A DNA stretch of 64,000 nt, from the NCBI RefSeq assembly GCF_045037415.1, contig NZ_CP173438.1. One strand, given 5' to 3'. The stretch comes from Escherichia coli (GTDB lineage: Bacteria; Pseudomonadota; Gammaproteobacteria; Enterobacterales; Enterobacteriaceae). This document shows, piece after piece, positions 13,182 to 24,341 of this stretch. The notes under the pieces are model-generated. The model did no database searches and was not told the DNA's origin. It saw only the letters and a list, made by a program, of their open reading frames with translations. Made by a program: the position numbers and the translations under genes. Within the stretch, counting starts at the first letter, position 1. Each line of letters begins with the position of its first letter.

Positions 13182-13820
13182 ATGCCCGGGCGCTTTGAAC
13201 TAAAACCAACCCTGGAGAAAGTCTGGCACGCGCCGGACAATTTTCGCTTCATGGACCCGCTGCCGCCGATGCATCGTCGGGGGATCATTATTGCCGCCAT
13301 TATATTGGTGGTCGGATTTCTGCTTCCATCTGATGATACGCCCAACGCGCCGGTGGTGACGCGTGAAGCGCAGTTAGATATTCAGTCGCAATCACAACCG
13401 CCGACAGAAGAACAGCTGCGGGCGCAATTAGTCACACCACAAAATGATCCTGATCAGGTGGCTCCGGTCGCTCCAGAACCTATACAGGAAAGCCAGCCAG
13501 AAGAACAGCCGCAAACTACCCAAACACAACCATTCCAGCCAGATAGCGGAATTGATAATCAATGGCGCTCTTACCGTGTCGAACCCGGTAAAACGATGGC
13601 GCAGCTGTTCCGCGACCACGGACTGCCCGCTACCGATGTCTATGCAATGGCGCAGGTAGAAGGCGCGGGTAAGCCGCTGAGTAATTTGCAAAACGGGCAA
13701 ATGGTGAAAATCCGCCAGAACGCCAGCGGCGTGGTGACGGGCTTAACCATTGATACGGGGAATAATCAACAGGTCCTGTTCACCCGCCAGCCGGATGGCA
13801 GTTTTATTCGTGCGCGGTAG
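13182..13820 (+). CDS. ytfB: Cell-division protein YtfB (OapA domain)
   Basis: ORF 13146..13820; ATG at 13182 preceded by AGGAGG gives [29 protein letters not shown]...; matches YtfB. Confidence 0.9.
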
Positions 13821-14451
13821 ATGAAGGGTCAACCAAAAGCCAGCTAAGGATTGTCTCTTTGATGACCTTACGTCTGGCTTCCAGTGCCTGGGGGGAAACC
13901 ATACTGATATGATAAACCAGGCCAAGCGTATGCTGGTTGATCAAATAATATCCGCCAAGCGCAGCAATATTAATATTCACCTGCAATGGGTCGATATCTG
14001 GCTTAAAAATATTTTGTTTCTTCCCTTCATCCAATAAGGATTCCATTAACTGCAAGTGCGCATGGTTAATTTCTAAAAGACGCTGTGATTTTGCATAATG
14101 CACACCCTTACTTTGATTTTCACTATGCACAATTTTTAAAAACCAGGGATTAGAAATATAATAATCCCATGTAAAATCGATTATTTTCTCAATGGCTTTC
14201 TGTGGCGGAAGATCTGAGAAATCAAGGGCCTTTTCTTTTTGTCGAATATCGTTCCAGGTATATTCCAGTACTTCGATAAATAAATTTTCTTTATTACCAA
14301 AGTGGTGATAAACCGTCTGTTTACTGCACCCCGCGGCCTTGACGATATTATCGACTCTGGCCCCTTCGTAACCATATTCGGCAAATTCATTAACCGCGCA
14401 TAACAGCAGCTTTTCTTTCAGGCTCTGTACGTTGCTGGTATCAAGATACAT
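13804..14451 (-). CDS. TetR/AcrR-family transcriptional regulator (accessory)
   Basis: ORF 13804..14523; internal ATG gives [58 protein letters not shown]..., a typical TetR N-terminal HTH. The gene looks AT-rich by eye and is divergent from the downstream operon; its 3' end overlaps the ytfB 3' end by 17 bp. Confidence 0.85.
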
Positions 14452-14573
14452 AACGCTTCCCCACGACCTCTTCGTGGTGACTATCATAACCTGATTTGAT
14501 TTCAGCTTCAGAAAAAAGGGCAAAAACTTGTACTTTCATCAGGTTATCAAATGTCCTGTGATCGCCATCGCAT

Positions 14574-14595
14574 ATCAACCAACTAGATGGTTGAT
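14574..14595. promoter_or_regulatory. Candidate TetR operator: perfect 8-6-8 palindrome in the TetR / SDR-operon divergent intergenic region
   Basis: atcaacca-actaga-tggttgat, ending 68 nt upstream of the SDR ATG (14664). Two further inverted repeats lie in the same region (ccacga...tcgtgg near 14461-14477; ataacctgat / atcaggttat near 14486-14495 and 14538-14547). Confidence 0.5.
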
Positions 14596-14663
14596 CTTTT
14601 TATCCTCCAGTCGCAAGCTAATCATCACTAAGGAAACAAAATTCAAAAAAAGAGAGCTATTGT

Positions 14664-15455
14664 ATGAAATCCACTCGTCCTGTTGCCGTGATTACCGGAG
14701 CCGCTCGTGGTATTGGAAAGGGCTGTGCGCTGGAGCTTGCGCGTGGCGGATTTAATCTGCTGATTAATGATCGTCCGGATGCGGATAGCGTAGAAAAATT
14801 ACATGCCACACAACAAGAATGTCTGGCGGAAGGCGTGGAAGTGATTTGCTTCCCTGCTGATGTGGGCGATCTCTCCCTGCATGAAGAGATGCTCGACGCA
14901 GCGCAAAACCAGTGGGGACGTCTGGACTGCCTGCTCAACAACGCAGGCATTTCAGTGAAAAAACGCGGTGACCTTCTCGACCTCGAACCAGACAGCTTCG
15001 ACCAAAATATTGCCATTAACACCCGCGCACCGTTCTTCCTTGCTCAGGCATTCAGTAAGCGCTTACTGGCACAGCCGAAACCGGAAGCAGAACTGCCGCA
15101 CCGCTCGATTATTTTTGTCAGTTCCATCAACGCCATCATGCTGGCGATGAATCGCGGCGAATATACCATTGCCAAAACTGCCGTCTCTGCCGCTGCTCGT
15201 CTGTTTGCTGCTCGCCTTTGTAATGAACAAATTGGCGTATATGAAGTGCGTCCTGGTCTCATCAAAACCGATATGACTATTCCGGCAACGGCCTATTACG
15301 ACGAACTGATTGCCAAAGGTCTGGTGCCGTGGGGACGTTGGGGTTATCCGGCGGATATTGCTTCCACTGTCCGCGCGATGGCGGAAGGTAAACTTATTTA
15401 CACCTGTGGTCAGGCGGTCGCCATCGACGGCGGCTTAAGTATGCCGCGCTTCTGA
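14664..15455 (+). CDS. Short-chain dehydrogenase/reductase (SDR, FabG-like)
   Basis: 263 aa with TGAARGIGKG cofactor motif, NNAG, and an S...YxxxK catalytic arrangement (YTIAK). Confidence 0.85.
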   Translation: MKSTRPVAVITGAARGIGKGCALELARGGFNLLINDRPDADSVEKLHATQQECLAEGVEVICFPADVGDLSLHEEMLDAAQNQWGRLDCLLNNAGISVKKRGDLLDLEPDSFDQNIAINTRAPFFLAQAFSKRLLAQPKPEAELPHRSIIFVSSINAIMLAMNRGEYTIAKTAVSAAARLFAARLCNEQIGVYEVRPGLIKTDMTIPATAYYDELIAKGLVPWGRWGYPADIASTVRAMAEGKLIYTCGQAVAIDGGLSMPRF

Positions 15456-15464
15456 GGCTGAATC

Positions 15465-22987: not shown

Positions 22988-23493
22988 TACTCTTTATTAT
23001 CAGGATCTTCTTCAATTGCCCGGCTAACCCTTTCCAGACTCGCTATTTCGGTAAATGGTGGGGCTGCAACATCAATGCGATTATCAAGAAACTCTCCAGC
23101 GTCTTCACGTTTGTATCGAAGAGCCCCAACCCGATAAAGATCATGAACACCTAGTAGATAATCAGACTCATAAAGGTGGGAGTCTTTATCACATAACCCG
23201 TCTCGAATATCCCTCTCAAAACGACGCTTCATTAGCATACGCCCCCAACGATCCGGGCAGGAATCACTAAATGCACCAAATTTATCCTTTGGAGGAATTG
23301 GGTACTGTGCTCCCTCATACAACATTATTTCAGGATCTAACTGAATGAAATTAAGTGAAGGATCTGCAAGCGCCTTTTTATCGTACTCAAACTCAAATAT
23401 CTCACGCGCCCGAGTGCGACGACTGTGTAAATAACCAATACGCGCAGGACCATCCAGGCCTTCCCAATCCGCATACACTCCGATTAATGCCAT
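22987..23493 (-). CDS. HipA N-terminal-domain protein (HipS/HipN-like; putative antitoxin or regulatory subunit)
   Basis: 168 aa MALIGVYADWEGLDGPARIGYLHSRR...SDSCPDRWGRMLMKRRF...LLGVHDLYRVGALRY, resembling the N-subdomain of HipA (LLPDSP...RDSVGA region); stop overlaps the kinase ORF start. Confidence 0.7.
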   Translation of the reverse strand: MALIGVYADWEGLDGPARIGYLHSRRTRAREIFEFEYDKKALADPSLNFIQLDPEIMLYEGAQYPIPPKDKFGAFSDSCPDRWGRMLMKRRFERDIRDGLCDKDSHLYESDYLLGVHDLYRVGALRYKREDAGEFLDNRIDVAAPPFTEIASLERVSRAIEEDPDNKE

Positions 23494-23495
23494 AA

Positions 23496-23987
23496 TTAAT
23501 TTCCTTTTAACGGTTTTTTTATCGGTTTTAATAGTGCAGCAAGAGAGGTTGATGTTTCTCCTGTAATAGATGGCGTCGAGCCTTCTGCCAGTGCTGTTAA
23601 ATCCGTGGTGAGATGACCTTCTTTCTCGTGCCTCATCTGCAATGAGGCTGTCTGAGAACCTTCTTCATTCTTACTTGATACACGAGACAGCCCTCTTTTT
23701 TTAATCAAACGGGAATCCTGGAGCTGACGCCCTAAGTCGTCTTCAGCTGCAAGCTTATTTAAATCCGTTTCCAGGCCCAAAACCTGCATCACAGACAAAT
23801 ATGCCCCTATCGTGACCCCTGCACTTCCTGACTCCAGAGAGCGCAATGTTATTGGCGACATCCCAGCACGTTCAGCAACTTGCTTTGCGGTAAGCCTGCG
23901 TCGTAAACGAGCAAGTTTCAGCCGCTCACCAAATTCACTAAGCATCTGATTCGTATAAGGGAGTAACGGTGCTGTTTTTTTACCCAT
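23496..23987 (-). CDS. XRE-family HTH DNA-binding protein (HipB-like) with a long Ser/Thr-rich C-terminal tail
   Basis: 163 aa; N-terminal HTH region ([32 protein letters not shown]) followed by about 90 residues of low-complexity sequence; stop lies 2 nt before the HipA-N ORF start. Confidence 0.7.
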
Positions 23988-24008
23988 AGTGATAATATTT
24001 TATCTTTT

Positions 24009-24027
24009 TATGGCTATGATAGCCATA
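24009..24027. promoter_or_regulatory. Candidate operator: 19-bp perfect palindrome upstream of the HTH / split-HipA operon
   Basis: tatggctat-g-atagccata, 22-40 nt upstream of the HTH start codon (23987) on the promoter side; flanked by a 23-bp direct repeat (see findings). Confidence 0.45.
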
Positions 24028-24341
24028 ATATTAGCATTTATTGGATTGAACGCACCTGCAAAGCGTTCAAGATTACGAAAGTGATGATATTTTATCTTTT
24101 TATATATAAAAACAATAAAATAACAGCACATTCATATATAACATATTGTTTTTATTATCATACAAGTGAGACGATCGCTGTATTGATGCTTTTGTCGTGT
24201 TTTACGCGTAAAAAACATGACACGAACTACCAGCGGCGAGGCTGGGGGCCAGGTATGGGTACTGCGAACTTTTTATAAAAGGAATAGCAAGAGATTTATG
24301 GAGGGAACGTCTGTTTCTGCAGTTTTTATCACTTAAAAGCA

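Follow-up and report, generated by a model that had tools for sequence, protein, structure and literature searches.

At least three histories in the variable segment between ytfB and rplI of Escherichia coli

The segment between the core genes ytfB (13182-13820, plus strand) and rplI (24389-24838, minus strand) was examined in a 64-kb stretch of an Escherichia coli chromosome, hereafter the window, in which positions 13000-25500 match a number of complete genomes, among them that of strain 4/1-1, at 100% identity. A sequence-only reading of the same DNA had proposed a compositional mosaic of at least two horizontally acquired pieces, in which an AT-rich TetR regulator and permease may differ in origin from the enzymes they flank. 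The compositional contrast is real and the AT-rich parts differ in cause. The segment has at least three histories, and these are partitioned otherwise than had been proposed.

Gene content and forms of the locus

Gene coordinates agreed with those of the sequence-only reading. Adjoining ytfB is a TetR/AcrR-family regulator gene, the ytfA orthologue (13804-14451, minus strand), whose product matches Pfam TetR_N (E=2e-14) and TetR_C_29 (E=2e-30). Five enzyme genes run divergently from it on the plus strand, encoding a short-chain dehydrogenase/reductase (SDR; 14664-15455; Pfam adh_short_C2, NCBIfam PRK12745), a xylose-isomerase-like TIM-barrel protein (15465-16307; Pfam AP_endonuc_2), an enoyl-CoA hydratase/isomerase (ECH; 16317-17093; Pfam ECH_1), a family I CoA-transferase (17103-18644; Pfam CoA_trans, NCBIfam FadX-like) and a fumarate-reductase/SdhA-like flavoprotein of 690 aa (18641-20713; Pfam FAD_binding_2). 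The divergent spacer between the TetR and SDR genes contains a 22-bp inverted repeat, ATCAACCAACTAGATGGTTGAT (14574-14595), a candidate TetR operator. Next comes a transporter module delimited by variant breakpoints (20705-22109, plus strand), consisting of an AT-rich spacer and the gene for MFS-A (20806-22083), an ExuT-like anion:cation symporter of the major facilitator superfamily (MFS). A terminator-like hairpin after this gene (22093-22129, plus strand; 15-pair stem followed by a T run) crosses the junction with the next module, a toxin-antitoxin cassette on the minus strand (22110-24335, including its AT-rich upstream region; Pfam HipA_C and HTH_31). The cassette comprises a HipA pseudogene (22226-23493) with a −1 frameshift near 22989, a helix-turn-helix (HTH) gene (23496-23987; Pfam HTH_31/HTH_3) and two copies of a 24-bp direct repeat, AGTGAT(A/G)ATATTTTATCTTTTTAT (23988-24011 and 24080-24103; repeat family D3), which are 96% identical and 92 bp apart. 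Beyond it stands the rplI terminator hairpin (24341-24367, minus strand), with perfect 13-nt inverted-repeat arms forming a 12-pair, 7-GC terminator-like stem, and a T-rich tail. Domains were assigned from Pfam and NCBIfam. Solved-structure searches gave no functional handle, the matches of the TIM-barrel protein being the uncharacterised 3qc0 and 3ju2, or 7vpf, named just 'Xylose isomerase', and a literature search on the operon and on the locus found nothing specific.

Besides the form seen in the window, in which TetR, enzymes, MFS and HipA/HTH lie between ytfB and rplI, the locus occurs in E. coli with TetR, enzymes and MFS followed by yjfZ or merely 45 bp; with TetR, enzymes and a three-gene tripartite ATP-independent periplasmic (TRAP) transporter; and, as in K-12, with a truncated TetR gene (ytfA) followed by yjfZ, in some cases plus IS609/TnpB or IS1. 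Among 5,426 complete E. coli genomes, with at least 80% of the query covered counted as a match, the enzyme block was present in 3,114 (57%), MFS in 1,683, TRAP in 1,446 (27%), HipA/HTH in 1,040 (19%) and yjfZ in 2,524 (47%; megablast). The MFS and TRAP counts add up to 3,129, close to the enzyme count, and the two transporters are therefore mutually exclusive alternatives.

Module breakpoints are sharp and common to independent variants. Homology of the flavoprotein gene with the TRAP variant stops at 20704, 9 nt before the end of the stop codon, so that the last 9 nt of this gene belong to the swappable transporter module (20705-22086/22109), whose other limit falls in the MFS terminator hairpin, where homology with other variants stops at 22086-22109. 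In all variants homology resumes at 24335/24336, leaving 5 bp between this junction and the rplI terminator hairpin. No tRNA gene was found in 12000-26000, no direct repeats at the module boundaries, and no integrase or transposase is annotated in the segment of this strain.

The K-12 pseudogene ytfA corresponds to the 3' 403 nt of the TetR gene in the window, with the break at 14206, and is followed by 4 bp and then by a 102-bp decayed SDR remnant (79-85% identity to live copies). The truncated regulator and the remnant indicate that the operon was lost there by deletion, and about 43% of E. coli genomes, K-12 among them, have lost the TetR-enzyme unit in this way. Between strains that retain them, the enzyme genes (14664-20704) show patchy nucleotide identity of 88-100% per 300 bp, with a synonymous divergence (dS) of up to 0.28 in the CoA-transferase gene as against at most 0.06 in the adjacent rplI operon, a sequence pattern that indicates deep allelic lineages and recombination inside the operon.

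Base composition of the segment

Composition was assessed against the 56 annotated core genes of the window (GC 0.522 ± 0.036; GC content at third codon positions, GC3, 0.568 ± 0.060, range 0.403-0.690) and its 34 intergenic regions (GC 0.419 ± 0.072). Binary segmentation of GC detected only a dip at yjfI and proved poor for short dips; it was replaced by an interval scan statistic, for which 40 block shuffles gave a null maximum of 26.5 and a null 95th percentile of 15.6. Codon usage was scored by log-likelihood and Karlin's B against the window core, and dinucleotide, tetranucleotide z-score and raw 4-mer signatures were tested with size-matched core controls.

Consistent with the proposed mosaicism, the top AT-rich interval of the entire 64 kb was 20551-24425 (GC 0.429), with a gain of 56.1, more than twice the null maximum. 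The interval holding the TetR gene and its promoter (13901-14675, GC 0.385) ranked fourth with a gain of 26.3, which is level with the null maximum and exceeds the null 95th percentile. The two intervals ranked between them lie in the core: 40351-40925, covering yjfI and its upstream spacer (GC 0.353; yjfI GC3 0.403), and 31026-31350, the ulaA/ulaG divergent spacer (GC 0.311). Since these significant intervals fall in conserved regions, low GC is not restricted to the accessory segment. Both AT runs quoted in the sequence-only reading are present, at 14134-14166 and about 24091-24125. The spacer that it had counted among the AT-rich parts is ordinary, in that positions 23988-24388 have a GC of 0.357, within the norm of the intergenic regions of the window.

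The enzyme block has a GC of 0.523 and is indistinguishable from the core in GC, dinucleotide, tetranucleotide z-score and raw 4-mer measures, as had been supposed by eye. Per gene, GC ranges from 0.49 to 0.55 and GC3 from 0.49 to 0.58 (SDR 0.532 and 0.515; TIM-barrel protein 0.550 and 0.584; ECH 0.490 and 0.510; CoA-transferase 0.527 and 0.523; flavoprotein 0.516 and 0.493), and the pooled GC3 is slightly low (0.519 vs 0.579, p=3e-7). All of the alternative modules at the operon ends are AT-rich by comparison, with a GC of 0.397 on the TetR side, 0.447 for MFS, 0.439 for TRAP, 0.425 for HipA/HTH and 0.409 for yjfZ.

The AT-rich parts differ in the codon positions concerned. The TetR gene (GC 0.403, GC1 0.495, GC2 0.287, GC3 0.426), with just 1-2 core genes lower, is low at all three positions relative to the enzymes (GC1 p=5e-4, GC2 p=5e-5, GC3 p=0.01), and its region departs from the core in both tetranucleotide z-score signature (p=0.016) and raw 4-mer distance (p=0.002). 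The MFS gene (GC 0.466, GC3 0.484) differs from the enzymes at GC1 only (0.488 vs 0.619, p=7e-7), its GC3 being close to theirs (0.484 vs 0.519, p=0.20), and the module deviates solely in the composition-driven raw 4-mer measure (p=0.01). Its low GC, which the sequence-only reading had noted correctly, thus comes mostly from GC1, as expected of a membrane protein. Core membrane proteins nevertheless have a far higher GC3 (0.637 vs 0.484 for this gene, p=3e-9). The two HipA fragments (GC 0.444 and 0.448, GC3 0.339 and 0.331) and the HTH gene (GC 0.459, GC3 0.378) have GC3 values below all of the core genes in the window, so that not every gene of the segment lies inside the core range. The HipA fragments differ from the enzymes at GC3 (p=6e-12) with normal GC1 and GC2, and the HTH gene likewise at GC3 (p=6e-4), with a marginally lower GC1 (p=0.045). 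A shift confined essentially to GC3 is the pattern expected of DNA from another mutational background. The module also stands apart from the core in dinucleotide distance (93 vs 53 ± 16, p=0.012) and in 4-mers (p<0.002).

Histories of the regulator-enzyme unit, the transporter slot and the cassette

The gene order TetR-SDR-TIM-ECH-CoA-transferase-flavoprotein-MFS is found between ytfB and rplI in E. whittamii, Klebsiella spallanzanii, Entomohabitans and many Salmonella enterica. In E. albertii the same order continues until the contig ends inside the flavoprotein gene, and a contig of Escherichia sp. MOD1 starts only at the TIM-barrel gene. An initial CoA-transferase contig scan with six peptides had pointed to a narrow distribution (Escherichia, K. 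spallanzanii and Entomohabitans); later protein searches overturned this, showing that the cluster is common in Salmonella and also present in K. oxytoca/grimontii, Enterobacter and Citrobacter, the scan having missed Salmonella and K. oxytoca. The supposition of a recently acquired island consequently fails for the TetR-enzyme block, which occupies the same site in several genera and is missing from K-12 by deletion. The TetR and ytfB genes are convergent, and their 3' ends overlap by 17 bp (13804-13820), identically in Salmonella (9632-9648 of locus L048, L numbers being our handles for compared loci), which fits a long co-residence of the regulator with the core flank.

The association of regulator and enzymes extends well beyond the Enterobacteriaceae. 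TetR adjoins SDR, ECH and CoA-transferase genes in Pseudovibrio flavus and Acidobacteria, together with the TIM-barrel gene in Pseudovibrio, and lies inside the same cluster in Pseudomonas. It is divergently adjacent to SDR in Pseudovibrio and in the acidobacterial locus L023, and a same-strand neighbour in L020. In the distant clusters of Pseudovibrio and Acidobacteria, TetR identity is 36-46% and enzyme identity 35-64%. Within the TetR/SDR spacer of E. coli, E. whittamii, K. spallanzanii and Entomohabitans, no element is better conserved than the palindrome at 14574-14595, in the form ATCAACCAAC(C/T)AGATGGTTGAT. The same spacer contains related palindromes in Pseudovibrio and in one acidobacterial locus, and on this comparison the 22-bp palindrome is the candidate operator of TetR.

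Divergence is matched as well. Relative to K. spallanzanii, nonsynonymous divergence (dN) is 0.078 for TetR, 0.059-0.144 for the enzymes and 0.075 for MFS, and dS is saturated for all of these (1.07-2.62), a range that includes the flanking ytfB (2.39). Salmonella identity to the window is 86.5% for TetR, 93.5% for SDR, 88% for the TIM-barrel protein, 89% for ECH, 90% for the CoA-transferase and 78% for the flavoprotein, with 83.5% for ytfB and 95.6% for fklB. Taken together, synteny, conserved palindrome and matched divergence make the regulator, candidate operator and enzymes one old unit, which removes the regulator from the parts for which a separate origin had been proposed.

TetR GC3 lies 0.09-0.19 under that of the enzymes in all enterobacterial hosts examined, with values of 0.426 against the pooled 0.519 in the E. 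coli window, 0.454 against 0.55-0.64 in Salmonella, 0.481 against 0.63-0.71 in K. spallanzanii and 0.405 against 0.51-0.69 in Entomohabitans. In the distant homologous clusters it is similar to or above that of the enzymes, and the contrast therefore arose within the Enterobacteriaceae and is gene-specific. The AT-richness of TetR is a long-standing property of the gene and no mark of separate origin. Saturated dS was at one stage taken as proof that the low GC3 cannot be donor memory. This argument was tempered because amelioration is slow, being still incomplete after about 100 Myr (PMC2394748); saturated dS alone is thus not decisive, and TetR is assigned to the enzyme unit on the grounds of synteny, the candidate operator and distant homologues in which the contrast is absent.

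The permease gives the opposite picture, and here the proposal of an origin different from that of the enzymes stands. The window MFS (Pfam MFS_1, E=4e-62) scores 314 bits against TIGR00893, the NCBIfam D-galactonate-transporter subfamily, under the 395-bit cut-off. The Salmonella permease at the same position, MFS-B, is just 50.7% identical to it, and E. coli K-12 ExuT only 47%. Relatives of MFS-A at 80-86% identity occur in Providencia, Edwardsiella, Yersinia rohdei, Pantoea ananatis, Gilliamella and Orbus. Those of Providencia and Gilliamella (82-84% identical by MAFFT, 83-86% by BLASTP local alignment) sit in uxaC-uxuB-uxuA-GntR hexuronate clusters with no island enzymes nearby. In a neighbour-joining tree the MFS-A clade (bootstrap 281/300) is nested in the ExuT-like family, with MFS-B outside. 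An earlier result, based on BLOSUM distances and midpoint rooting, in which the island permeases were not monophyletic, was overturned with Kimura distances, more taxa, outgroup rooting and bootstrap. GC3 in the ExuT-like family follows the host (0.23 in Gilliamella, 0.35 in Providencia, 0.69 in Pantoea and 0.83 in Edwardsiella; GC1 0.44-0.54). The lag of the island MFS in K. spallanzanii (GC3 0.51 vs 0.63-0.71 for the enzymes) is hence not intrinsic and fits a separate history.

The binding protein of the TRAP alternative has its nearest representative, at 58% identity, beside a GntR regulator gene and uxuA. A copy of yiaMNO was considered for this cassette and rejected, at 291 bits against a YiaN equivalog cut-off of 800. 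MFS-A, MFS-B and the TRAP system are each members of importer families for organic anions or sugar acids, and the slot has been refilled at least twice with functionally similar importers, which suggests a uronic or related sugar acid as substrate of the operon. The nearest relatives of both E. coli transporter alternatives adjoin hexuronate-catabolism genes (uxaC, uxuB, uxuA and GntR-family; L043 5481-12260, L045 4767-11260 and L052 182-3302). In a Salmonella-labelled contig (L050 7239-15542) we observed a variant cluster that lacks the ECH gene and in which MFS is followed by a gene for a MaoC-type hydratase; it is AT-rich throughout (GC3 0.33-0.49), and its permease falls together with the permeases of Entomohabitans and Escherichia sp. 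MOD1-EC7003, which suggests from the sequences that alleles of the entire cluster pass from genus to genus.

The HipA/HTH cassette is a recent, foreign, separate and strain-variable insertion, and among the loci examined it is the only module absent from the same site in related species. Together with the discordance of permease and enzymes, it bears out the expectation of two or more pieces with different histories in the segment. Relatives at 67-69% nucleotide identity reside on Pantoea and Azotobacter plasmids. Two base pairs separate the end of the HTH gene from the co-oriented HipA gene downstream of it; the product of the HTH gene matches the Y4mF/HipB antitoxin subfamily weakly (30 bits vs a cut-off of 72), and HipA scores 47.5 bits against the YjjJ equivalog (cut-off 401). 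A 1-nt deletion at nt 505 of the HipA gene leaves open reading frames of 168 and 253 aa, the latter retaining the HipA_C domain (E=8e-48), and RefSeq flags the frameshift. The gene is intact in strain A24 (422 aa), and in strain 83972 it carries an independent frameshift, an extra G in a G-run near nt 555 (alleles compared: L041 397-1666 and L042 397-1665). Judged from these alleles, the toxin gene has been inactivated by independent frameshifts in separate lineages; the HTH partner gene is intact in the window and in both of these strains. The first copy of the 24-bp repeat abuts the HTH start codon, and the repeats may be operator sites of the putative antitoxin.

Interpretation and likeness to known systems

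We consider it likely that the segment is a patchwork of three layers whose AT-rich parts are AT-rich for different reasons. The first layer (13804-20704) would be the old unit of TetR gene, palindromic operator and five enzyme genes, which would have occupied the ytfB-rplI site from a time before the divergence of Escherichia, Salmonella and Klebsiella. The second (20705-22109) would be a transporter slot repeatedly refilled with sugar-acid importers, namely the ExuT-like MFS, another MFS in Salmonella, and TRAP, with junctions in the last flavoprotein codons and in the transporter terminator. The third (22110-24335) would be a cargo slot just outside the rplI terminator, filled here with the foreign HipA/HTH cassette and its frameshifted toxin gene. 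Elsewhere this position holds yjfZ, insertion sequences or nothing, and in Salmonella loci EamA or MaoC genes. As to direction and mechanism, we infer that the replacements probably took place by homologous recombination via the conserved flanks.

Several points weigh against the three-layer patchwork. The MFS GC3 in the window is near that of the enzymes, so foreignness is not shown by composition alone and the case for the permease rests on the comparative data. MFS-A and the enzymes diverge in step when the loci of Escherichia, Klebsiella and Entomohabitans are compared, which makes the recruitment of MFS-A old. The TetR GC3 deficit recurs in every enterobacterial host, and an early replacement of the regulator by an AT-rich xenologue of the same subfamily may have occurred. 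The core baseline consists of the genes of one window, the trees are neighbour-joining, and taxon sampling is uneven.

One alternative, close to the original proposal, is that TetR and MFS both derive from an AT-rich source other than the one that supplied the enzymes, and became linked to the enzymes during assembly of the island. Both are lower in GC than the enzymes here (0.403 for TetR and 0.447 for the MFS module against 0.523) and likewise in K. spallanzanii, Entomohabitans and Salmonella; tetranucleotide z-score signature and raw 4-mer distance set TetR apart from the core; and the ExuT-like relatives, the tree and the discordant Salmonella MFS back the permease half. The regulator half runs into its position next to SDR in Pseudovibrio and Acidobacteria with identities in line with those of the enzymes, a palindrome conserved between genera and recognisable between phyla, and values of identity, dN and dS that match the enzymes' in K. 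spallanzanii, Entomohabitans and Salmonella. The distant clusters, moreover, have no donor-level contrast, and the GC2 of 0.287 indicates a contribution of amino-acid composition. We regard this joint origin as improbable.

We give similarly little credence to the idea that AT-richness at both operon ends is kept by selection, for instance as binding or nucleation sites through which H-NS, a nucleoid protein that prefers AT-rich DNA, silences the cluster until induction. Such selection would account for the AT-richness of TetR and of all transporter alternatives irrespective of origin. In its favour, every alternative end module is AT-rich (0.397-0.447), the TetR deficit persists in four genera despite saturated dS, and the ExuT-like family is not intrinsically AT-rich. 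AT-rich accessory DNA is general, however, and locus-specific selection is not needed to explain it; the GC3 of the E. coli MFS is not below that of the adjacent flavoprotein gene; and slow amelioration can keep a donor signal for about 100 Myr (PMC2394748).

A single history without mosaicism, in which the differences stem from constraints intrinsic to each gene, for example the amino-acid make-up of membrane proteins and regulators, the level of expression and AT-rich DNA between genes, would accommodate an MFS that differs at GC1 only, the normal spacer at 23988-24388, AT-rich core genes such as yjfI and the low TetR GC kept in orthologues, but is very improbable given the GC3-only deviation of HipA/HTH, its presence in 19% of genomes, sharp breakpoints and plasmid-borne relatives, the mutual exclusion of MFS and TRAP, a Salmonella MFS 51% identical beside enzymes 78-94% identical, and structural variants that already contradict it, assembly artefacts being implausible across thousands of complete genomes.

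Compositional contrast alone is, on this evidence, an unreliable guide to origin. Among the four elements flagged by the sequence-only reading, HipA/HTH is foreign, the permease has a separate origin yet in this genome is barely deviant at synonymous positions, TetR is strongly deviant yet co-inherited with the enzymes, and the spacer is ordinary. Returning to the three-layer patchwork, the processes that it involves are known ones, modular operon evolution and a variable slot beside a terminator, and no new kind of system is involved. The operon itself, present in more than half of complete E. coli genomes, is uncharacterised, and a sugar acid is probably its substrate, as judged from the transporter families. 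A further, doubtful extension would be that the conserved TetR-enzyme block specifies a hitherto uncharacterised CoA-dependent pathway that acts on a uronic or related sugar acid and has an interchangeable uptake part, that the near-even MFS/TRAP split of operon-bearing E. coli (1,683 vs 1,446 genomes) is a polymorphism kept in the population, with a proton symporter fitting some niches and a high-affinity, binding-protein-dependent system fitting others, and that AT-richness at the regulator end is selected, for example for silencing.

The locus resembles E. coli integration hotspots and mosaic accessory regions in its variable content between conserved ytfB and the rplI terminator, in its alternative occupants by strain (HipA/HTH, yjfZ, IS609/TnpB, IS1 or nothing) and in the AT-richness of the inserted DNA. 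It departs from them in that the segment is without integrase, tRNA gene or flanking direct repeat, and in that TetR and the enzymes form an old locus common to Salmonella and Klebsiella that was deleted in K-12-type strains. With classical integrative genomic islands it shares a sporadic strain distribution (3,114 of 5,426 genomes for the enzymes, 1,040 for HipA/HTH). Deviant composition, another feature of such islands, is seen in HipA/HTH and TetR, whereas the enzyme block is core-like and MFS deviates at GC1 only. The tRNA, direct-repeat and integrase hallmarks are lacking, and relatives are not empty at the site, since Salmonella, K. spallanzanii, Entomohabitans and E. whittamii carry the cluster there.

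The individual modules also have recognisable counterparts. Like HipBA type II toxin-antitoxin systems, the predicted toxin-antitoxin cassette has a HipA_C gene directly downstream of a co-oriented Xre-type HTH gene with repeats upstream, and is mobile, patchy and also found on plasmids; it differs in the frameshifted toxin gene and the 163-aa HTH protein. The island permease shares the NCBIfam subfamily of ExuT of the uxa/uxu regulon and is 80-86% identical to transporters of uxaC-uxuB-uxuA-GntR clusters, but only 47% identical to K-12 ExuT, and is tied to CoA-dependent enzymes rather than to uxa/uxu. The regulator resembles divergent TetR repressors of catabolic operons in its TetR_N and TetR_C_29 domains, divergent gene and palindrome in the shared spacer, and is unlike them in that its gene is markedly more AT-rich than the putative target operon in all enterobacterial hosts examined.

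At the position beside the rplI terminator, yjfZ copies were located at L003 9854-10648 and, in K-12, at L002 3629-4423; strains in which yjfZ is missing hold the HipA/HTH cassette, the TRAP system or nothing there. This gene (DUF2686) has been put forward for water testing by quantitative PCR, as one restricted to E. coli/Shigella and conserved there (PMC11057252), and as a proposed universal E. coli marker it was matched in just 47% of the complete genomes.

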